Shown: positions 6,803 through 27,400, counted from the first letter of the whole stretch. The stretch: 33,152 nucleotides of DNA, filler included, from Fonticula-like sp. SCN 57-25 (GCA_001724245.1; 3 parts of 3 records of this genome joined end to end with filler, not necessarily neighbours in it), one strand, 5' to 3'. The notes: generated from the letters alone by a model not told the origin. Program-made: numbers and translations.

Positions 6803-8601
6803 CTAGAACCCGCTGACTGATTTCGTGTCCGTCTTCTTGAGCTTGCCGCGCATCGCGTCCATGCCCGCGAGCATCGGATTGGCTGGCGCGGCCGCTTGCG
6901 GTGCCTTTGCACCACCATTTGCCGCGCCTCCACCGCCTCCACCGACTGCTGGTGATGACGAGTCGCGCGTCGTCGTCTTCTTGAGCTTGGCACCCTGCTG
7001 GATGCCCGCCAACAGCTGCGAGCGGTCGCCTCCAGAAGGCGGCCCACCAGCGGCGGGCGGCGGTGGCGGCGGAGGCGCAGACGGGGCCGGCGGCGGCGGT
7101 GGCGGCGCAGGGGCAGCAGCTGGCGGCGGCGGTGGGCCACCTGCAGCTGGAGAAACACTGCCTGCAGCTTGCGTCTCCTGGGCGCGGGCCTCTGCCTGGC
7201 GCTGCTTCTCCTCTGCAATCCGCGTGCGCTCCTCCGCCTCGCGGAGGCGCCGCTCCATGTCGGCACGGTCGCGCTCGGCGCGCTGCTCGGCGTCGCGGCG
7301 CGCGGCAGCCTCGGCTTCGGCGGCGGCCTTGGCGGCGGACAGCTCCGCGGCGGCAGCGGCGGCGGCGGCGTCGGACCGCGCAATGGCTGCCTTGGCCTCC
7401 TGCTCAATGCGGTCGCGCTCGGCGGCGGCAGCAGCAGCGGAGGCGGAGGCGGTGGCGGCCGCGGCAGAGGCGGCGGCTTCGCGCTCAATCGCCTTTGAGG
7501 CGAGTTGCTCGGCAGCGGCCTTGTCAGCGGCGGCCTTGGTGGCAGCTTCCTTGGCCTTGTCTGCTGCTAGTTTTTCGGCTGCTGCCTTATCTGCGGCTTC
7601 CTTGGCGGCCTTGTCGGCAGCCGCCTTGTCAGCAGCGGCCTTGTCTGCAGCTGCCTTGTCGGCCGCGGCCCTGTCTGCTGCTGCTTTGTCTGCAGCGGCT
7701 TTGTCTGCAGCGGCCTTGTCAGCCGCGGCTTTGTCTGCAGCGGCCTTGTCAGCAGCTGCTTTGTCCGCCGCGGCCTTGTCAGCGGCGGCTTTGTCGGCAG
7801 CGGCCTTGTCGGCGGCTTCTTTGGCAGCCTTTTCAGCAGCTGCTTTCTCGGCTGCTGCCTTGTCTGCCTCGGCCTTGTCCTGGGCCGACACTGATACGGC
7901 GGCCATGTCGGTAGGCCGCTTGAATGTGTTGGCCTTGAGAGCGACGCCGGCCGGCTCCTGCGGCTTCGGTGCGGCCGCCGGAGCCGGTGCAGCTGCGGCT
8001 CGCGTCGCAGGAACGGGTGCAGCGGCGGGAGCAGCGCTGCGAGTGGGTGCGGCTGGCGAAGGGGCACTGCGAATGGGTGCCGCTGGCGAAGGGGCACTGC
8101 GAATGGGCGCCGCTGGTGAAGCGGCGCTCCGATTGGGCGAGGCTGGCGAAGGAGAAGCGCGATTGAAAGTCGCTGCTGACGTGGCGACACGACTGGGCGA
8201 GGCGGGCGAGGGAGCGGCACGAGAGGGCAGCGCGGGTGACGGCGCCGGCTGTGCGGCGCGCGGCGCAGGGGCGGTGGCAGCCGGCCGTCCAGCGGTCGGT
8301 GCCGGCGCTGGCCGACCAGCGGCTGGCGCGGCGGCAGTGACATCGCGCATCGCCTTGAATGTGTCTGTTTTGCTGGTGAATTGCTTGACCGTTGGCCCGC
8401 TCGAAGACGCCTTGCTCACAACTCGCCTGTCACACGGTCAGCGCCACAGAGGGAAAGAGAGAGCGCGCACTTTGGCTGGACGTGGACATTGCCAGGGGTG
8501 CCAAACTGGGCTTGCGCACCGAGCATCGCTAGCCGAATCACGGCATTGATCTCCTCCTCGTTCTGCTCGGGAAGCGGAGCCTCGTCATCAGAGTCGGACA
8601 T
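6803..8601 (-). CDS. WH2-domain, polyproline, Ala-rich helical-repeat actin regulator (WIP/verprolin-like C-terminus)
   Basis: ATG at 8601 and one 44-nt intron join ORF 6803-8419. PPPPP tracts, WH2 '[18 protein letters not shown]', second WH2-like '[11 protein letters not shown]'. Confidence 0.8.
7520..7875 (-). repeat. Coding 15-bp tandem repeat, (D/E)KAAA x ~20
   Basis: Repeated GACAAGGCCGCNGCN units with synonymous variation. Confidence 0.9.
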
Positions 8602-17809: not shown

Positions 17810-18483
17810 CTTTTGGGCGTACTTGACTTTTATTTATGTCTACGACGTCATAACGGACTCGGTGAGCGGTATCTTCGACCTTGCGACCAGAAGAAACTGC
17901 GCCTTGTCGGCTCCGCCGAAAAAGACTCCCTTGCTGTGCAGCAGCGCGCTGGCTTGAGAACGTGATCCGGGCGTACCTCACGTTTTGCATGTCGGCTCCA
18001 AACATTATTGCCTCGGTCAAGGGAGTCCTCTTCGACCTTGCGACTTGAAAGAAGTGCTCCTTGTCTGCACCGCCGAAGAAGGCTCCCTTGCTGTGCAGCA
18101 GCGCGCTGGCTTGAGAATGTGATCCGGGCGTTCCTCACGTTCTGCATGTCGGCTCCAAACATGATGGCCTCGGTCAAGGGAGTCCTCTTCGACCTTGCGA
18201 CATCAAAAAAGTGAGCCTTGTCTGCATTGCCGAAGAAGGCTCCCTTGCTGTGCAGCAGCGCGCTGCGCCACCGCTTGAGGACGTGAGGGACGTCCTCGCA
18301 CATGAAAGTGCCGTTGTCGTCCGCCTTGAACCATTCGCCACCAGGAAAGCCGTCGTCGGCGGCGGCGTCGCGACAGGCCAACAACAACAGGAGGCCACGC
18401 TGCTCTGATACGGGAGCGTTGTCGGGCACAACTTGTCCGCGCGCTACAAGCTCCGAGAGTACCTCCGCCGGGCCCTTCTTGGC
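17810..18483 (-). mobile_element. Degenerate P-element/THAP9-like transposase fragment with a ~3x 157-bp internal array
   Basis: 'EDVPHVLKRWRS' resembles the D-x-x-H-L-L-K-x-x-R motif, and 'ADMQNVRNARITFS' resembles D-x-M-x-V-x-x-A-x-x-F-S. The anchor TTCGACCTTGCGAC recurs at 17874, 18031 and 18188. The frame breaks at each unit and the sequence runs into the gap. Confidence 0.55.
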
Positions 18484-18583
18484 NNNNNNNNNNNNNNNNN
18501 NNNNNNNNNNNNNNNNNNNNNNNNNNNTTAATTAATTAANNNNNNNNNNNNNNNNNNNNNNNNNNNNNNNNNNNNNNNNNNNN
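18484..18583. other. Assembly spacer N44-TTAATTAATTAA-N44
   Basis: Artificial all-frame-stop linker; linkage across it is unproven. Confidence 0.98.
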
Positions 18584-18888: not shown

Positions 18889-19195
18889 AAGTCCTCTGCA
18901 GATGGCTGGCCGGACGCCCACCTCAATATATAGGATTGTCAACACGCCTCCTGGCACAGCTTATCTGCGACTGGTTGAGTCTTTTGTAATAGTAGAGAGT
19001 GGAATTTGCCTTGTGGCATTGTACTTTCGTGTTCTTTCCATTTGTGGTACAATACAAGGTACACTGCTAGAAAACGATAGGCCATGCACGACATATGAAT
19101 AGCGTTGATTAAGGTAGTATTCACAGACGTTAGTAGTCCGTTACTTCACTGATACAACATTCGTATTCAATGCAAGATATCGAGCCTCAACGCCT

Positions 19196-20735
19196 CTACA
19201 ACTTGGACTTTACATCGCGAACATGCGTCGAATCCTTAACTACAAATGGACACTTGACGCCGATTGCCTCTGCGACCTTGAGCCCCGACGTGAGCCCGTC
19301 TTCATGGAAGCCATAATTGCTCCATGCACCACAGAACCAAGTATTGTTCTTGCCTTGGATAGTAGCGAGCTCTGACTGTGCGGCAATCAACTAACAGAAG
19401 AAAGAAAAACACGTTAGCATGAAAGCCACAGCGAGCAAGAGAGAGCGTGGCGCACGTCGCCTGTGTAAACCGGGTGCTCATACTCGTAGCTCGCAACAAC
19501 CAGGTGCGACTTGGGTTGGTTGAGAGGGTTCAGCGTGACAAACAGATCGCGCTCTTTACCATGACCGATAAACGGCTGCAAGCGGTTCATCCAGTATGTC
19601 AAAGAAATCTCGCGCTGACCACTGTCTCCCATTGCCACATAGTTCCAGGACGACCAGCAGTTGCGTCTCCTCGGCATAAACTACACATGACGCGTGTCAA
19701 CAACCAATGACGACCGAAAGCTACATACCGAGGGATCGCGATGAACAACGGCCACATTTTTCTTATACTGAATCTTGCCCAACACGGTCCTCTCCTCATC
19801 TGTAGGGTCCTGGAGGAGGGCAAGCACTTGGTCACCGTGGCAAGCAAAGACGACTTCGTCGTAGATCTCTTGCCTGCCAGTAATATCGGTCACAATCGAC
19901 CGACCTCCATCGATACGACGAACGCTCTTGACAGCGCAACTGACCCGAACGTCGGGGAGCCCTGCGGTAACCTTTCGGACGTATTCACGAGAACCGTTCG
20001 TGACGGTAAGCCACTGAGGGCGGCCACTGAGGTTCGTAAAACCATGGTTATGATAAAATCGGAGCAGAGTGACGGCCGGGAAAGCCAGCATGCCAACGGC
20101 AGGTGTCGACCAAATAGCCGCCGTCATGGGCAGCAGATAGAGATCCCGGAAACTTTGCGAGTACCCGCCCCTCTCGAGAAATTCGCCAATAGTAAGCTTT
20201 GACGAAGCGTTGTCCACGCGTGCGAGGAACTCCACTGCTTCCGCGTTAAAGCGGCGCACGTCCCAGAGCATGCGCAAGAACGACGGGCTGAGCAAGTTGC
20301 TGCGCTGTGCAAATACAGTCGAAAGACTGTCACCAGCCCACTCCATCTGGCCGCCGTTCAGGGTCACAGCAAAGGACATGTCGCTGTCTTGGTACTAGTG
20401 TTAAAGCGTGAGTATGACAGAACAGCCAAGCGGCCAGTGCCCGCACCTGAACGCCAAGAGCGCTGAAAAAATTCAGCATGTTCGGGTATGTCTCCCGGTT
20501 GAAAACGATGAAGCCAGTGTCCACGGGGGTCGTCTCTTTCGAATTCTCAGTGCGCGGCACGTCGATCGTGTGAGTGTGCCCGCCGACATAGTCCCCCTTC
20601 TCGTAAACAGTCACATGGTGCTCGCGGTTGAGCACCCACGCGGCGCCAAGGCCCGAGATCCCGCTCCCTACAACCGCGATCTGTAACTCGTTAGATTCAG
20701 GGGTTCAGTCGCCCGTCGCGTACCTTTTTCGGCAT
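19196..20735 (-). CDS. FAD-dependent oxidoreductase, COG2907/amine-oxidase-like (UfaD-type), with C-terminal PTS1 -SKL
   Basis: Five exons. MPKK|IAVVGSGISGL, GGHTHT, VDTGFIVFNRETYPN, SDMSF, PMTAAIWS, SSWNY, TYWMNRLQ, YEHP, WFCGAWSNYGFHEDGL; ends KSKL*. Confidence 0.93.
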
Positions 20736-20986
20736 CGCAGAGCTACTATCAGTGCCAAAGCCTACACAACAAATACGATCACGCAAGCCGCTGTTCCAAC
20801 ACAGTCGCAGCTCTTGTAGTTGTAGAAGCAGCTCAGAATGCAGTTGCCACGCCGAGGTTGTGTTGCAGAGCTTTTTCCTCCAACGCAACCTTTCAATAAT
20901 CAGCTGAACAGAATCAGTCGATTGTGAAAGCGTGTGTCACCTTTCGTCTCCGCACACTGACAGGCAGTGTACGCAACCGTCGGGAG

Positions 20987-23317
20987 ATGGCCTTCACGTG
21001 GGCGTTGTTGCTCTACGCAGTAGCGCTGCTAGCGGCAGCTCTCTTGGTAGCATCGCTAGTCTCCGTCTGGGTGTTTCGCCGCAAGGGAGGACGGTCGTTT
21101 AACTCGCGTGTGTTCCTCGGCCAAACGCGTCATGCTCGCCTCAAGCCCGTCGTCAACCAGTTCGCTTACTCCGTCAACTACTTTTGCTTTGACGTCGAGG
21201 AACTGCCTACGTTGATGTCGTACATGCCGTTTCTTTTTGGCCACAACCGGTTTGCAGTGTTTTCACTGTACGACAGAGACTACCTCTCCGGCGATCGCTC
21301 TGGAACTCCGCTCATCGACCTTGTACGTCAACATCTGACGTCACGCGTATCCCAGGCGGCAGCAGACAAGACTGCACGCGTTGAGCTGATTACCGTCCCG
21401 CGCTACCTTGGCTATGCATTCAACCCTGCGAGTTTTTTTTACTGCTACGATTCGCATGATGTTCTTGTGTCCGTTATTGTCGAGGTGAACAATACGTTTG
21501 GCGAGCGGCATACGTACGTGATGGCACATGAGTACGGCAGCAATGCGAGGTCAGCGGGCGACCACACCACTCAACGCGCTCGTATGAGCTATACTCACAG
21601 CTTCTTTGATGTTCCGCGCATGCTCCATGTCTCGCCCTTTAACGACCGAAGGGGCGCCTACGAAATGCACTGCGTGAGCGATGCTAGCAAATTGGACATT
21701 TACTTTGTGATGCGCGACAACAAGGGGCGCAAGCACCTCACCGCTCGCTTGGTCGGCAACGCCGTGCAGTTCACGCCAAACACGCTGATGATGCTCGTGG
21801 TGATGTTTCCCATTACGATGTTTGCGACAGTTCCGCGCATTCTGTGGGAGGCAGGAAAGATTGCCTTCCGCCACCTGCTACCAGTTTACGCCAAGCCCAA
21901 CCCCCACCCGATATCGCTCAAGGTGAATTTGCCTACGTCAAAGGAAAAGGCAGCTGCAAAGCAGTTCGTTGAAGTGATCCGCGCGACACTCAAGGAGCAG
22001 GGCACCGAGGCGATCATTCACATGCCCGTCGGATGGGCACATGTTTCGGGCGATGCCACCAGCAAACCTGAGGGTGGTCAAACGAGCGTTGACAAGACTG
22101 CCGATTCTTCTAGCAAGGATCTGTCTGCGAGCTCGTCATTGTCCAAGGATGCGCTCCAAATCCCGCGTAGGCCCAATTCGCCGCTTGCAATGTCCAGCGA
22201 CCCAGGGCCCTCCGCCGATTCCGATCAACTCAACATTACTTTTTCAAACTACACGCCTTTTACAGTAGACAAGCTCGAGGGGCTACTTGACCAATACGCC
22301 GACGGAAACTGGCAGGCCGAGCCACTGTCGCAGATGATGCCCCTGCTCGGTGACGCCAAAAATGGCATCGCACACATCCATCCCGACACGTATCCCACTG
22401 GCGAAAGCCTGGCAAGGCTCGGTGTCACCGAGGCGCGAGGAACGTACAGCGCGGCGAGATCTGTTTTGAATGGCATTGTAGATGAGGCGTGGCATCGAGA
22501 ATGGGTTGCATCTACGTGGTGGGCAACCGTGCAATCTGCGTTGCCAACCGAAGGTCGTCACGGAGGCGCGCCCAAGATCCTGCTCATTGGCACCAAGGCT
22601 CATTGCGACGACATTGCCCCTCGGCTTCTTGCGAGGAAGGTCACATTGACGGTCGTCCACGTCCCACGCCACCTCCTTGAGGATACGGTCTTCCCCGAGA
22701 TTCCTCAAAGCGAGAGCGAGGTTTTCGATGCCAATCTTTTGTTGGACGTCGAGCCTAACCAGAATTTTATCATGTTGCTTCATCGCCTCGGACGGCGCAC
22801 GATCAGAGTTGCGCTCGTCACGGACGACGCGGCTGAGCACGGGGTGAACATGATGAGCGAAATGGCCGCACCGTTGGTGGGAACAGCAGCGCCCAAGCCA
22901 AGCATCCTTGAACGGATCGGTGAGTGGGGCATGCGCTCTGTGGCGACGTTTGTTCGTTCGCCTTATACGCTGCCTTACCGAGTGCAGATGTACGCAGAGG
23001 TCTTTCAGAATAGCCTGTTTCAGTCGATGGGGTGCACGATATCGTCCGTGGCTCTCCTTCCTCCTACAGTGTCCGAGTTCACCAGCGCTTCGATCTCCGA
23101 GTCTCAGCATTCCCACCTTTATGTCGAGGCGTTCCGCAGAGCTGCAGAGCATGCAAAGGGGCTCTTCGATGAGACTGACCAGGCGTCGTATGATACGGAG
23201 GCCGCCCGAACATTCTACTTTTTGAGCGAGTGGGCAGCCTTCCGCATAGAGCAAGGAAATTGGAAAGTGGTTCTCATCAATGCCGCGGCTCCTACAATCT
23301 TTAAATTTATGGACTAG
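20987..23317 (+). CDS. DUF1365 (UfaO-type) protein with N-terminal TM helix, fused to a degenerate cyclopropane-fatty-acyl-synthase-like domain
   Basis: Intronless. 'GQTRHARLKP..FAY', 'PRYLGYAFNPASFFYCYD', 'VEVNNTFGERHTY', 'HVSPFN', 'PRILWEA'. The C-terminal half has CMAS-like remnants. Confidence 0.9.
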   Translation: MAFTWALLLYAVALLAAALLVASLVSVWVFRRKGGRSFNSRVFLGQTRHARLKPVVNQFAYSVNYFCFDVEELPTLMSYMPFLFGHNRFAVFSLYDRDYLSGDRSGTPLIDLVRQHLTSRVSQAAADKTARVELITVPRYLGYAFNPASFFYCYDSHDVLVSVIVEVNNTFGERHTYVMAHEYGSNARSAGDHTTQRARMSYTHSFFDVPRMLHVSPFNDRRGAYEMHCVSDASKLDIYFVMRDNKGRKHLTARLVGNAVQFTPNTLMMLVVMFPITMFATVPRILWEAGKIAFRHLLPVYAKPNPHPISLKVNLPTSKEKAAAKQFVEVIRATLKEQGTEAIIHMPVGWAHVSGDATSKPEGGQTSVDKTADSSSKDLSASSSLSKDALQIPRRPNSPLAMSSDPGPSADSDQLNITFSNYTPFTVDKLEGLLDQYADGNWQAEPLSQMMPLLGDAKNGIAHIHPDTYPTGESLARLGVTEARGTYSAARSVLNGIVDEAWHREWVASTWWATVQSALPTEGRHGGAPKILLIGTKAHCDDIAPRLLARKVTLTVVHVPRHLLEDTVFPEIPQSESEVFDANLLLDVEPNQNFIMLLHRLGRRTIRVALVTDDAAEHGVNMMSEMAAPLVGTAAPKPSILERIGEWGMRSVATFVRSPYTLPYRVQMYAEVFQNSLFQSMGCTISSVALLPPTVSEFTSASISESQHSHLYVEAFRRAAEHAKGLFDETDQASYDTEAARTFYFLSEWAAFRIEQGNWKVVLINAAAPTIFKFMD

Positions 23318-23478
23318 GATAATTGTTTGCATTTAGATCGCCGGATCGCAGTCCGGATTCCATTTTATGTGCATGCTGCATTCTGCTTGTTATATTCATG
23401 TCTTATTGTTCAATACAATTAATTATTTCACAATACCTGATAATATGCCAACAGGAAAAAGCCACATACCGCAACCAT

Positions 23479-25953
23479 TTAACGCTTCTTTGACCTCATA
23501 CCACCGCCCTTCTTCTTCTGCGCGTTAATCTGCCTCCTCTCCCGCATGAACTTTTGCTTCTTCTCCTTAATCTTGCGCTCCTTACGAATGCGGTCTGCGG
23601 GCTTCAGCTCGCTCTTTGCCTTACTGCCGTCCGTGCGCTGGCGCTTGGCCGGGGACTGTCCGCCCTGCGAAGCTCCCGCACGCTTTCCGTTCTTCCCTTG
23701 CGGCTCGGCATGGGCGGCCTCATCATCGAAGCGGCCCTTACCTCCCTTGCCACCAGCCAGCACGCGGCGACCGTCCTTGCGCTTCACAAACTTGAGCTTG
23801 CTCTCGTCCTGTCCAACGCGCATGGTTCCAGTGCCGTGACGCTTTTGCCACTCCTGGAACGCGTCCGTCTTGTAGCTGGCGGGGATAAGGGCGCCAGATT
23901 CGGTCCGGATCATCTTTTCACCCTTGGCACCGCCGTCCATGCCGCCAGTGCGCACGTACTTCTTCTTCTTGCGGTCCCACTGAAGACGACTGCGATCGCG
24001 CTGAAGGCCAGAGGTGTCATCGGCCGTCAGATCAAACACGGCATCGCGCGCTGCTTCAGAGAAGCTCCTGGCTGCCGGGTCCTTCATGGAATACCCAGCC
24101 TCTGTGTAGCGATCCGACTTTTGATACGACATATAATGTTCCTCGTCCCGGAACGAAGTGCGCTTGCCTACCTTGGTCTTGGAGTCCGCCGAGGCGGAAG
24201 GCCGCCGCTTGTTTCCGGAAATCGGGAGGAAGCCATCATCATCGTCGCCCTCAACCTCGAGGAATGCGCTATCGTCGTTTTCCTCCTCCTCAGTCTGTTC
24301 GTCCCCAGAGTCCATCTCTTCATCATCAGGCTCTGACGAGGCGGGCAGCGGACGCTTGCGCTTGTTATCGCGCACAAACTCGTGCGACAAGTCGACCTCG
24401 TCGTCATCGTCATCATCGGGCTCTAAAGCCGCACGAGACGAATCTGCGTTGCCGGTCGGGCGGAAGGTCTTGAGCTGGTCGAGAAGCGAGGTGCGAACAA
24501 GATCTTCCGTACCCAACTTGGCAGCCAGAAGCGGATGCGGGCCAAAGATCTGGGTAGCGGCCATCTCCTTGGCGCGTGCATGTGATTCTGCAGAAGCCGC
24601 AGGGCGAGAGCGCAGATACATCTTAAAGGCATTTGAGGCGACGTGACGCATATTGAACAGTTCGACACTGTCAGAGTGGCACTTTGCAACCTGCTCGCGC
24701 TCAATGTCGATCGTCGTCGGCGGAACGAGGCCATAGACAACAGTATTGGCATCAGCAGGAGGCTGATTCGAACCCGCCGGCGGCGCCAGCGCAAACGGCC
24801 GACCAAGGAAAAGCGACAAGTCCACTACAAAGGGGAGCTCATCCGGTGTAATGAACGAGTAGGCGGTACCCGCGCGGCCAGCACGGGCGACACGACCGGT
24901 GCGGTGAATGAAGACCTTGGGGCGGGGGGGAAAGTCGTAGTTGATCACATTGTCGAGGAGCGGAATATCGATACCGCGAGACGCGACATCAGTCACAAGA
25001 AGCACGTTAAGGCTGTTGTTGCGGAAACGAGCGAGAGCGATTTTGCGCGCTGTAGCGTCCATTGCACCATAAATGCATCGCGACTCGATGCCGACGAGGT
25101 CCAACAGCCGTTGCAAGTGCTCAGCATGATGGCGCGTTGAAACAAAAACAAGGGTCTGTTGCCCAGTAGGAATTACCTCGCGAAGCATGTAAACCAGCAG
25201 TGCCGAGCGGTCCTCTGGACGGGTGCCAAAGAAGTGGAGCTTGAGGTCAGAGCTCAGCTTGGCATCAGTATCCAACCGAACAAGGACGGGCTCATTCAAG
25301 CCGGCCTTGGCAAAGTCAACGAGCAAGCGAGGCAGCGTCGCCGAAAAGAGAAGCGTAGTCCGGGTCGAGGGAAGACGGTTGAGAATTTCACGCAGCTGTT
25401 CAGCGAAACCCATCTCAAACAAGCGGTCCGCCTCGTCAAAGACAATATACTCTACGCTGTGCAGTTTCAGGTCCATCTCGACTAGCAAATGCAGCAAGCG
25501 ACCGGGCGTAGCAATAAGAATATCAGGGTTGCCAGCCATAGCCGAGAACTGGTCGTCGAGACTGTCACCACCCACAAGCAGGGCGCTGCGGAGATCCTGG
25601 AATCGACCGAGCTCAGTGACAACCTTGAGCGTCTGCATGGCAAGTTCGCGCGAAGGCGACAAAATGATTCCACGTGCGCCAAACTTGGCAGAGTGGCCGC
25701 GCAGGCGCTCAAGCATGGGAATAACAAAAGCAGCAGTTTTTCCTGAACCAGTACGCGCCATGCCGACGACATCCTTGCCGTCCAAAATGAGAGGAATGCA
25801 TCGGCGCTGGATGGGAGTTGGCACTTTGTAGCCTTTACGAAGCACACTTCGCAACAAGCTTGCGCTCAGTCCCATGGACTGGAAGCCTCCAGACCCAGAC
25901 GACTTGACCTTGGTGCTAAGGAACGCATCATCATCGGCGTCGTGGTCGGCCAT
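23479..25953 (-). CDS. DDX54: DEAD-box RNA helicase DDX54/Dbp10
   Basis: GGFQSMGL, PTPIQR, ARTGSGKT, DEAD, SAT, HRTGRVARAGR, Dbp10 C-terminal 'WDRKKKKY..IRTESG'. Confidence 0.97.
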   Translation of the reverse strand: MADHDADDDAFLSTKVKSSGSGGFQSMGLSASLLRSVLRKGYKVPTPIQRRCIPLILDGKDVVGMARTGSGKTAAFVIPMLERLRGHSAKFGARGIILSPSRELAMQTLKVVTELGRFQDLRSALLVGGDSLDDQFSAMAGNPDILIATPGRLLHLLVEMDLKLHSVEYIVFDEADRLFEMGFAEQLREILNRLPSTRTTLLFSATLPRLLVDFAKAGLNEPVLVRLDTDAKLSSDLKLHFFGTRPEDRSALLVYMLREVIPTGQQTLVFVSTRHHAEHLQRLLDLVGIESRCIYGAMDATARKIALARFRNNSLNVLLVTDVASRGIDIPLLDNVINYDFPPRPKVFIHRTGRVARAGRAGTAYSFITPDELPFVVDLSLFLGRPFALAPPAGSNQPPADANTVVYGLVPPTTIDIEREQVAKCHSDSVELFNMRHVASNAFKMYLRSRPAASAESHARAKEMAATQIFGPHPLLAAKLGTEDLVRTSLLDQLKTFRPTGNADSSRAALEPDDDDDDEVDLSHEFVRDNKRKRPLPASSEPDDEEMDSGDEQTEEEENDDSAFLEVEGDDDDGFLPISGNKRRPSASADSKTKVGKRTSFRDEEHYMSYQKSDRYTEAGYSMKDPAARSFSEAARDAVFDLTADDTSGLQRDRSRLQWDRKKKKYVRTGGMDGGAKGEKMIRTESGALIPASYKTDAFQEWQKRHGTGTMRVGQDESKLKFVKRKDGRRVLAGGKGGKGRFDDEAAHAEPQGKNGKRAGASQGGQSPAKRQRTDGSKAKSELKPADRIRKERKIKEKKQKFMRERRQINAQKKKGGGMRSKKR

Positions 25954-26291
25954 CCTCGTGGCACAAGTTGGATGACAGTCGAGGATTGCAAACTGCAAAC
26001 TGATGTACTGATGTAGGATTGAGGATTGATCGAGCTGCACAGGAGCTGGAACAGCGGCAGGCTAGTTGAGGAAATGAATCAGTGAATGACAAAAGACCCA
26101 AACAAGTAAGACGGCACGAAAGAAGCGGCATCCACTGTATCGTCCTTTATTTTTACATATTTACAATCCATAGTCTTTTATATCATCCCATGTAGCCTAT
26201 ACAAATTGCCCGATATTGCAGGCAGTATGCAGTATTTGAGTTTAAGCAATGCACACAGCGCTTCAAATAAGATAGAAATACACAGCCGTCA

Positions 26292-27151: not shown

Positions 27152-27180
27152 GTCGTGCTGCTTGCAGCCTCCGACATATA

Positions 27181-27212
<32 letters not shown>

Positions 27213-27262
27213 GGCCGCCTGCGCAAGGATGACACGCTTATCGAGAAAGCAAAACCCTTTTT
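27152..27262 (+). ncRNA. U6: U6 spliceosomal snRNA
   Basis: 5' hairpin GTCG..CGAC, then AAAATTGGAACGATACAGAGAAGATTAGCATGG..CTGCGCAAGGATGACACGC, then a T10 terminator. Confidence 0.96.
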
Positions 27263-27300
27263 TTTTTGTTTTTGAACCTTTGGTTCACCACTTGGTCATA

Positions 27301-27400
27301 NNNNNNNNNNNNNNNNNNNNNNNNNNNNNNNNNNNNNNNNNNNNTTAATTAATTAANNNNNNNNNNNNNNNNNNNNNNNNNNNNNNNNNNNNNNNNNNNN
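27301..27400. other. Assembly spacer N44-TTAATTAATTAA-N44
   Basis: Same artificial linker as at 18484. Confidence 0.98.

Follow-up and report, generated by a model that had tools for sequence, protein, structure and literature searches.

Does a microbial eukaryote carry its own version of the bacterial ufaD/ufaO pair, which is responsible for furan fatty acids? The question is raised by two divergent genes at positions 19196-23317 of a stretch of DNA from Fonticula-like sp. SCN 57-25 (GCA_001724245.1), analysed here over its full 33,152 nucleotides, filler included, and referred to below as the window. One gene encodes a COG2907-type flavoprotein resembling UfaD and the other a protein with the DUF1365 domain that is also found in UfaO. 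By analogy with the bacterial enzymes, we give a probability of roughly 0.55 to the reading that the pair encodes a UfaD/UfaO-type acyl-chain desaturase and an O2-dependent ring-forming enzyme that act at a eukaryotic membrane or lipid droplet. Our confidence that the product is a methylated furan is lower than our confidence in this general mechanism.

The reference point is Rhodobacter sphaeroides, in which UfaD is RSP1091 and UfaO, containing DUF1365, is RSP1090. UfaO incorporates O2 to yield the furan fatty acid, and the modified acyl chains are phospholipid-bound (PMC7380195). The methylase UfaM is encoded separately (RSP2144), 11Me-12t-18:1 is one proposed intermediate of furan fatty acid synthesis, and the other operon genes, RSP1087-1089, which include the CMAS-like RSP1089, are dispensable. 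For Rhodopseudomonas palustris, RPA2571-2569 are sufficient for the pathway (PMC7380195). The roles that the original prediction had ascribed to UfaD, UfaO and UfaM agree with this account.

The following features of the locus were delineated, with positions counted from the first letter of the window.

19196..20735, minus strand: UfaD-like (COG2907) FAD-dependent oxidoreductase gene (splice model, Pfam, tblastn, variants)
20735-20724, 20680-20447, 20394-19729, 19680-19456 and 19390-19196, minus strand: exons of the UfaD-like gene (splice model)
20681..20723, minus strand: intron 1 of the UfaD-like gene, 43 nt, GT-AG, after the 4-codon exon 1 and before the exon with GxGxxG
20736..20986, no strand: spacer between both start codons, 251 bp, presumed bidirectional promoter
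20987..23317, plus strand: DUF1365/UfaO-like gene, an intronless open reading frame (ORF) of 776 aa plus stop (stop codon 23315-23317)
20990..21076 (residues ~2-30), plus strand: N-terminal hydrophobic helix, presumed membrane anchor (Kyte-Doolittle, model)
21113..21904 (residues ~43-306), plus strand: DUF1365 domain (PF07103)
21941..23314, plus strand: C-terminal extension, ~455 aa, of no recognised family (ORF, variants)

The two genes were thus confirmed as a minus-strand flavoprotein gene and a plus-strand DUF1365 gene with an ATG-to-ATG gap of 251 bp, in unbroken sequence between the N runs at 18484-18583 and 27301-27400. Gene models and Pfam matches agree with the original prediction of an intron-containing COG2907 oxidoreductase gene diverging from a DUF1365 gene, and the same coordinates were obtained for its 251-bp intergenic region. 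Four minus-strand reading frames (20635-20330, 20379-19681, 19677-19414 and 19390-19196) become one gene after removal of four introns, all GT...AG and 43, 52, 48 and 65 nt long, giving a coding sequence of 1332 nt (443 aa) in five exons. Exon 2 has no in-frame start codon ahead of its GSGISG motif, and the ORF there opens only at GTG 20635, so that the 4-residue exon 1 is required. CTAAC-like branch sites were recognized by eye in the short introns.

The gene models were compared with natural variation, using contigs of four other metagenome runs against positions 19000-23500. Of the 65 variant rows obtained, 40 were classified, and all class counts given here and below are among these 40. 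The runs that contain the sequence best are from bioreactors, wastewater and aquatic samples or are labelled “fungus metagenome”, with no RNA run among them; contigs of three other studies cover the pair piecewise at 95-99% identity. Exonic variants in the two genes were synonymous in 29 of 32 cases: all nine in the exons of the minus-strand UfaD-like gene, each at a third position, and 20 of the 23 in the plus-strand DUF1365 gene. Non-coding variants comprised four in the predicted introns of the UfaD-like gene (minus strand), one in the spacer and three past the 3' end of the minus-strand gene. Intron 1 carries two natural variants (20684, 20695). The synonymous excess and the intronic variants together support the splice model and purifying selection on both genes; both are real genes under purifying selection.

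Could the stretch nevertheless be bacterial contamination or a chimeric assembly? Such an origin might be suspected because the sequence is metagenome-derived and N runs occur in the window. The flavoprotein frame, however, is restored only by removing four spliceosomal introns, the top bacterial identity is just 50% for the flavoprotein and 40% for DUF1365, and the pair recurs, piecewise, in three other studies at the identities given above. The flanking genes are also eukaryotic. A DBP10-type DEAD-box helicase gene (23479-26040, minus strand; DEAD, Helicase_C and DBP10CT/NUC160 domains; one intronless 853-aa frame) faces the DUF1365 gene tail-to-tail, the two stop codons being 161 bp apart. 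Because the flanks (DBP10, U6 small nuclear RNA and 5S rRNA) are eukaryotic, contamination or chimerism is very unlikely, to the point of being negligible, and the locus consists of nuclear genes of a microbial eukaryote.

Assignment of the flavoprotein to its family was based on profile and translated searches. Exon 2 opens with the GxGxxG dinucleotide-binding motif in the form GSGISG, and by itself matches NAD_binding_8 (PF13450, E 1.5e-7) and Amino_oxidase (PF01593, E 1.7e-6), the latter being the family named beforehand. NCBIfam holds no family for exons 3-5 and returned for exon 2 only generic flavoprotein N-terminal matches below the cut-offs. When the spliced protein was used in tblastn, 75 near-full-length bacterial matches were obtained at 32.8-50.2% identity, and all 78 bacterial flavoprotein matches lie directly upstream of a DUF1365 gene. 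Identity is ~45% at two alphaproteobacterial loci (L031, L033) that served as proxies for the characterised enzymes; the highest identity found anywhere is ~55% (P0122). Among proteins of solved structure, its closest relative is the amine oxidase LkcE from the lankacidin pathway (E 3.6e-12).

For the second protein, the DUF1365 assignment made in the original prediction is backed by a full-length match to PF07103 (211.2 bits against a cut-off of 25, E 2e-62, profile positions 2-235 of 235), while NCBIfam has no family for DUF1365. In a 20-sequence alignment (A1), the window protein keeps the residue at all 24 invariant and all 10 nearly invariant columns. Identity ranges from 28% to 40% across 80 bacterial loci, is 31-34% to L031 and L033, and does not exceed 41% anywhere. 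Ahead of the domain, the Kyte-Doolittle 19-residue mean is 2.1-2.7 for windows starting at residues 1-13, and the predicted model places a helix at alignment residues 2-33. This helix is present in the chytrid protein P0046 and is not found in the 18 other rows of A1. From its sequence we presume it to be a membrane anchor.

An AlphaFold2 model of the DUF1365 domain, computed from A1, had a mean pLDDT (predicted local distance difference test) of 82.8 and a pTM (predicted template modelling score) of 0.82. It consists of the N-terminal helix, a beta-rich core in the form of a closed beta-barrel and a long C-terminal helix. No solved structure matches the DUF1365 domain by sequence, and Foldseek with the model gave no match at E<=0.001. 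The top rows from VIA-align were closed barrels of the nitrobindin and Rv2717c types, the OlmO spirocyclase and a phycobiliprotein lyase, with Z of 5.5-6.2. The modelled fold is compatible with a barrel for hydrophobic ligands, which is no proof of function.

Are the two families tied to each other outside the window? One genome per prokaryote species was scanned with the DUF1365 alignment, which yielded 80 loci; note that the domain query used for this survey and for the tree began at 20984 and therefore carries one residue more than the protein read from the first ATG at 20987. A ufaD-like homologue lies directly upstream of DUF1365 on the same strand in 78 of the 80 loci. Of the two without a match, L003 is truncated where its contig stops, and L001 has none at E<=1e-10. 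A CMAS (PF02353) homologue is found in 75 of the 80; in 71 it is the next gene downstream, with the same orientation, and the order ufaD-like, DUF1365, CMAS is complete in 69. Among 14 control genomes, DUF1365 occurs only in Caulobacter. Two loci depart from the usual third gene: a Phyllobacterium locus (L064, 5720-7273) has a DNA photolyase after ufaD-DUF1365 in place of the CMAS gene, and a Rhodobiaceae locus (L018, 5892-8063) has a GGDEF-EAL protein there.

The claim that both families are adjacent in bacterial operons, usually with a methylase resembling cyclopropane-fatty-acid (CFA) synthase, therefore stands, at 78 and 71 of the 80 loci, respectively. The further claim that operon-like linkage has been kept fares differently in its two parts: adjacency is upheld, and simple retention is not, since the bacterial genes are co-directional and those of the window divergent. 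The head-to-head order here, against co-directional order in bacteria, implies at least one inversion or re-assembly. The comparison with the characterised systems follows the same lines. UfaD/UfaO of R. sphaeroides and RPA2571-RPA2570-RPA2569 of R. palustris belong to the same two families and are direct neighbours, as in the window, and the window proteins keep the invariant DUF1365 residues and the GxGxxG motif of the flavoprotein. Those bacterial genes, in contrast, form a co-directional operon, are intronless and encode proteins of ~430 and ~250 aa that have neither a membrane anchor nor a C-terminal extension, whereas the window genes are divergent, the oxidase gene bears introns, and the DUF1365 protein has the extension and the presumed anchor. 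A UfaM methylase is known in the Rhodobacter/Rhodopseudomonas genomes, whereas none was seen in the 33-kb window.

An alternative account of the arrangement is that the adjacency is incidental, with the spacer holding two unrelated promoters and the genes being independently regulated. The genome is compact, as the 161 bp from the DUF1365 stop to the DBP10 stop illustrate, so that divergent neighbours would be common; the orientation is unlike that of the bacterial operon; and a motif scan of 20736-20986 found only direct and inverted repeats of 8-16 nt, possibly due to chance, with no motif that is conserved or stands out. On the other hand, two given genes among thousands would end up side by side by chance with a probability of ~2/N, and these same families neighbour each other in 78 of the 80 bacterial loci. 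We consider an incidental pairing improbable, and we presume from the arrangement that the 251-bp spacer is a shared bidirectional promoter. In contigs of other runs the spacer shows one substitution (20834). Separately, an extra A is inserted behind 20756 in contigs of two other runs.

Phylogenetic trees were examined for the source of the two genes; RSP1091, RSP1090 and their Rhodopseudomonas counterparts are absent from all of them. A FastTree phylogeny of 107 proteins unites the flavoprotein in one clade with proteins of Basidiobolus, two of Calcarisporiella and P0122 (Shimodaira-Hasegawa (SH)-like support 99). The clade is nested in a Proteobacteria-dominated set of 67 rows (SH-like 96) that includes alphaproteobacterial operon genes. 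The DUF1365 protein pairs with a protein of the chytrid Phlyctochytrium, with support of 92 in FastTree and 74 in IQ-TREE. Forcing the window and chytrid proteins to group with Proteobacteria was 24.5 log-likelihood units worse and was not rejected by the approximately unbiased (AU) test (p 0.12); 18 redundant or long-branch loci were dropped from the smaller DUF1365 tree. Discordant donors for the two genes, hinted at by the free trees, were set aside as they are not supported by that test. On these sequences a common operon origin of the two genes is neither shown nor excluded. The lineage appears poorly sampled because the top identities are ~55% and 41%. The fungal affinities, the short introns with CTAAC-like sites and the recovery from “fungus metagenome” runs suggest that the host is most likely an early-diverging fungus.

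How might the pair work? Given homology with the Rhodobacter/Rhodopseudomonas enzymes, from which the enzyme roles are derived, the 443-aa flavoprotein would act on an acyl chain that is already part of a membrane or lipid-droplet lipid, in ester linkage, and dehydrogenate it to a conjugated diene. Tethered by its N-terminal helix to the surface of the endoplasmic reticulum (ER) or a lipid droplet, the DUF1365 protein would take the acyl chain into the pocket of its beta-barrel and use O2 to close an oxygen-containing, furan-type ring. A methyl branch, if any, would come from a CFA-synthase-type methylase encoded elsewhere; otherwise the pair may act on unmethylated dienes. Note that the shared promoter, the substrates, the furan product, the place of the proteins in the cell and the way in which the extension arose are all inferred, not observed.

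Several points weigh against a UfaD/UfaO-type function. The substrate of UfaD in R. sphaeroides is a methylated chain (PMC7380195), and no source of the methyl group was detected at this locus: tblastn with three bacterial CMAS queries against the 33-kb window returned only noise at E<=10, and the ten largest other ORFs of the window have no methyltransferase domain. The CMAS-type methylase that usually accompanies the pair in bacteria, and for which a profile search had been proposed, was thus not detected in the window. The genes are head-to-head and not co-directional, which makes their common regulation an assumption. The barrel matches reach only Z ~6, a level that may reflect merely a common arrangement. 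The window and chytrid DUF1365 proteins fall within 19 non-proteobacterial or unlabelled rows (97 by the SH approximate likelihood-ratio test), and the characterised enzymes are alphaproteobacterial. Finally, in the available parts of the literature on UfaD/UfaO, DUF1365 and fungal furan fatty acids, no activity has been demonstrated for eukaryotic members of either family.

Some of these same points would fit a pair that modifies lipids without making furan fatty acids, acting instead on unmethylated polyunsaturated chains or on sterol or polyketide-like lipids and giving another oxidised or desaturated product. No methylase was detected in the window, LkcE is the solved protein closest to the flavoprotein, and the DUF1365 protein lies outside the proteobacterial part of its tree; moreover, R. 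sphaeroides can make furan fatty acids without RSP1089, the CMAS-like gene of the operon, so that the genes in an operon do not determine what is made (PMC7380195). Set against this, the families are single and tightly linked across bacteria (78 of 80 loci), the only members tested, from two species, make furan fatty acids (PMC7380195), and none of the invariant DUF1365 residues of A1 is missing from the window protein. We regard a non-furan product as a serious possibility, although one we would not favour, and retain the UfaD/UfaO-type desaturase and ring-forming enzyme as the preferred reading.

What, then, is the long extension of the DUF1365 protein? No relative of it was found in any of the collections searched. 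Pfam gave no match even at E<=10, a word-indexed search through 5.8 billion clustered proteins returned the extension alone, a full HMMER scan, which covered 1.84 billion representatives, returned it together with two spurious repeat proteins, and an ESM Atlas feature search gave no usable look-alike. The candidates P0242 and P0243 (PA28_N/UBA-like repeats, cadherin), in which many short stretches were matched, were judged spurious. When the complete 776-aa protein was compared by BLASTP with P0046 and P0048, two long DUF1365 proteins of eukaryote type, similarity stopped at the end of DUF1365 (~30 residues further for P0048). A low-complexity stretch rich in Ser, Asp and Pro occupies roughly 22040-22230.

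The extension is clearly coding and under purifying selection. Of its 13 variants, 12 are third-position changes that leave the protein of the DUF1365 frame unaltered (binomial chance of at least 12 of 13 at third positions, ~2e-5), and six of the seven that overlap an antisense ORF (22283-23332) would be non-synonymous there. This pattern and the effect on the antisense ORF together indicate that the extension is translated and constrained. With no detectable relative in very large databases and yet under purifying selection, it is an unexplained item in its own right.

Existing bacterial fusions of DUF1365 to CMAS (P0011, with partial P0013 and P0003) prompted tests of a CMAS origin for the extension. 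As in the window, DUF1365 is N-terminal in these proteins and is followed by extra sequence at the place of the downstream gene, but the added part is a clear PF02353 domain or an N-terminal segment of one, whereas the window extension has no significant match to the PF02353 profile. Comparison of the extension with 67 CMAS proteins by hhalign gave one local match, colinear and at the most conserved N-domain motif (E 0.09, probability 0.6%, 28 columns); with the -glob option only a 14-column alignment resulted. In hmmsearch of CMAS against the extension and 500 shuffles, the real sequence ranked 2nd of 501, with 3.5 bits. Profile Smith-Waterman comparison with CMAS gave z values of 0.3-1.9 relative to 400 shuffles per setting, which is not significant. 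An AlphaFold2 single-sequence model of the extension had a pLDDT of 37, so that no fold call is possible, and showed alternating strand-helix elements. At the best match by eye, the counterpart of the glycine-rich loop that binds S-adenosylmethionine (SAM) in CMAS keeps one glycine only.

Could the extension be an extremely diverged but working CFA-synthase-type methylase? In that case the plus-strand gene would encode UfaO and UfaM in one protein, and the pair of genes would be self-sufficient. There is bacterial precedent, with a PF02353 domain after DUF1365 in P0011 (E 4e-41) and CMAS N-terminal segments after DUF1365 in P0013 (3e-42), P0003 (6e-8) and the 462-aa P0058 (1e-4). The colinear hhalign match on the conserved motif (E 0.09), the rank of 2nd of 501 against shuffles, the CMAS-like length of ~390 aa once the low-complexity insert is discounted and, in a low-confidence model, the strand-helix alternation would all be compatible with it. 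The hhalign probability of 0.6%, the Smith-Waterman z values, the absence of a Pfam CMAS or methyltransferase match at E<=10, the single glycine left at the SAM-loop counterpart and the unusable AlphaFold2 model argue the other way, and we consider a working methylase unlikely. A degenerate CFA-synthase origin is possible on sequence grounds and has no statistical support. Our best guess is that the extension is a non-catalytic remnant of the fused downstream CFA-synthase-like gene, now used for targeting or scaffolding.

The boldest form of the fusion idea is that UfaO is joined to a cryptic, extremely diverged CFA-synthase-derived domain that is still active, either in methylation or in presenting the substrate as a partner, and that the locus is a self-contained bidirectional two-gene furan-type module in an early-diverging fungus. 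We hold this to be unlikely. If true, the cryptic CFA-synthase fusion would be an independent eukaryotic architecture beside the plant fusion of oxidase and methylase.

That homologues are annotated in other eukaryotes, as the original prediction noted, is borne out by Arabidopsis and Chlamydomonas. The Arabidopsis proteins AT3G23510 (UFAM1/UFAD1, one protein) and AT1G30130 (UFAO1) are located at lipid droplets or the ER, and a furan role is proposed only (PMC10940516, PMC12712439, PMC13247531). Like the genes of the window, they are intron-containing nuclear homologues of the same families in a eukaryote, and they are membrane- or lipid-droplet-associated. The Arabidopsis oxidase, however, forms one protein with a CFA-synthase-type methylase, and its gene and that of UFAO1 lie on separate chromosomes, whereas the window oxidase is unfused and its gene shares a spacer with that of the DUF1365 protein. 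The extra domain is on the DUF1365 protein in the window, and the Arabidopsis fusion partner sits on the oxidase instead.

In Chlamydomonas, the DUF1365 gene Cre06.g269300 is induced by singlet oxygen together with CFA1 and CFA2 in a SAK1-dependent manner, a co-induction that resembles the sigmaE regulon of R. sphaeroides (PMC4067076). By analogy, singlet-oxygen induction in the two organisms suggests a conserved stress role. Co-regulation in the alga acts in trans via SAK1, with no adjacency described in the available part of that paper, whereas the window genes are adjacent. Neither a fungal ufaD/ufaO pair nor a head-to-head arrangement was found in the available literature on UfaD/UfaO, DUF1365 and fungal furan fatty acids, a search that did not extend to supplementary homologue lists (ref. 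24 of PMC7380195), which may hold fungal entries.

The two families, their presence in eukaryotes and their likely role have thus been published already. The original prediction is confirmed in what it observed and supported in part in how it read it. What is new is that the two genes are packaged divergently, that the oxidase is unfused and that the DUF1365 protein has a presumed membrane anchor and a constrained orphan extension. Taken on its sequence, the locus by itself demonstrates no function. Its interest lies in the fact that furan fatty acid synthesis in eukaryotes is unproven, with plant and algal UfaD, UfaO and UfaM homologues merely hypothesised in the available sources. A compact divergent two-gene locus makes an easy whole construct for testing eukaryotic members for the bacterial activities, and its architecture, unlike the plant type, shows that the module has been repackaged more than once.

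The remainder of the window holds several minor features. The block at 7001-8000 has 72% G+C, a strong AT skew (-0.42) and long overlapping ORFs on both strands; these ORFs have no Pfam match. Next to the N runs at 18484-18527 and 18540-18583 is a tandem repeat (17872-18265), in which a 157-nt unit occurs 2.5 times with 90% matches; it overlaps repeated ORF segments. The N runs at 18484-18583 and 27301-27400 have an identical pattern (44 N, 12 bases, 44 N) and may be scaffold gaps or masking. A 5S rRNA gene at 2704-2811 on the minus strand (RF00001, 54.8 bits) is apparently a dispersed single copy outside any rDNA unit in the window. On the plus strand, a full-length U6 spliceosomal small nuclear RNA gene (27152-27264; Rfam RF00026, 79 bits) lies just before the N runs at 27301-27400.

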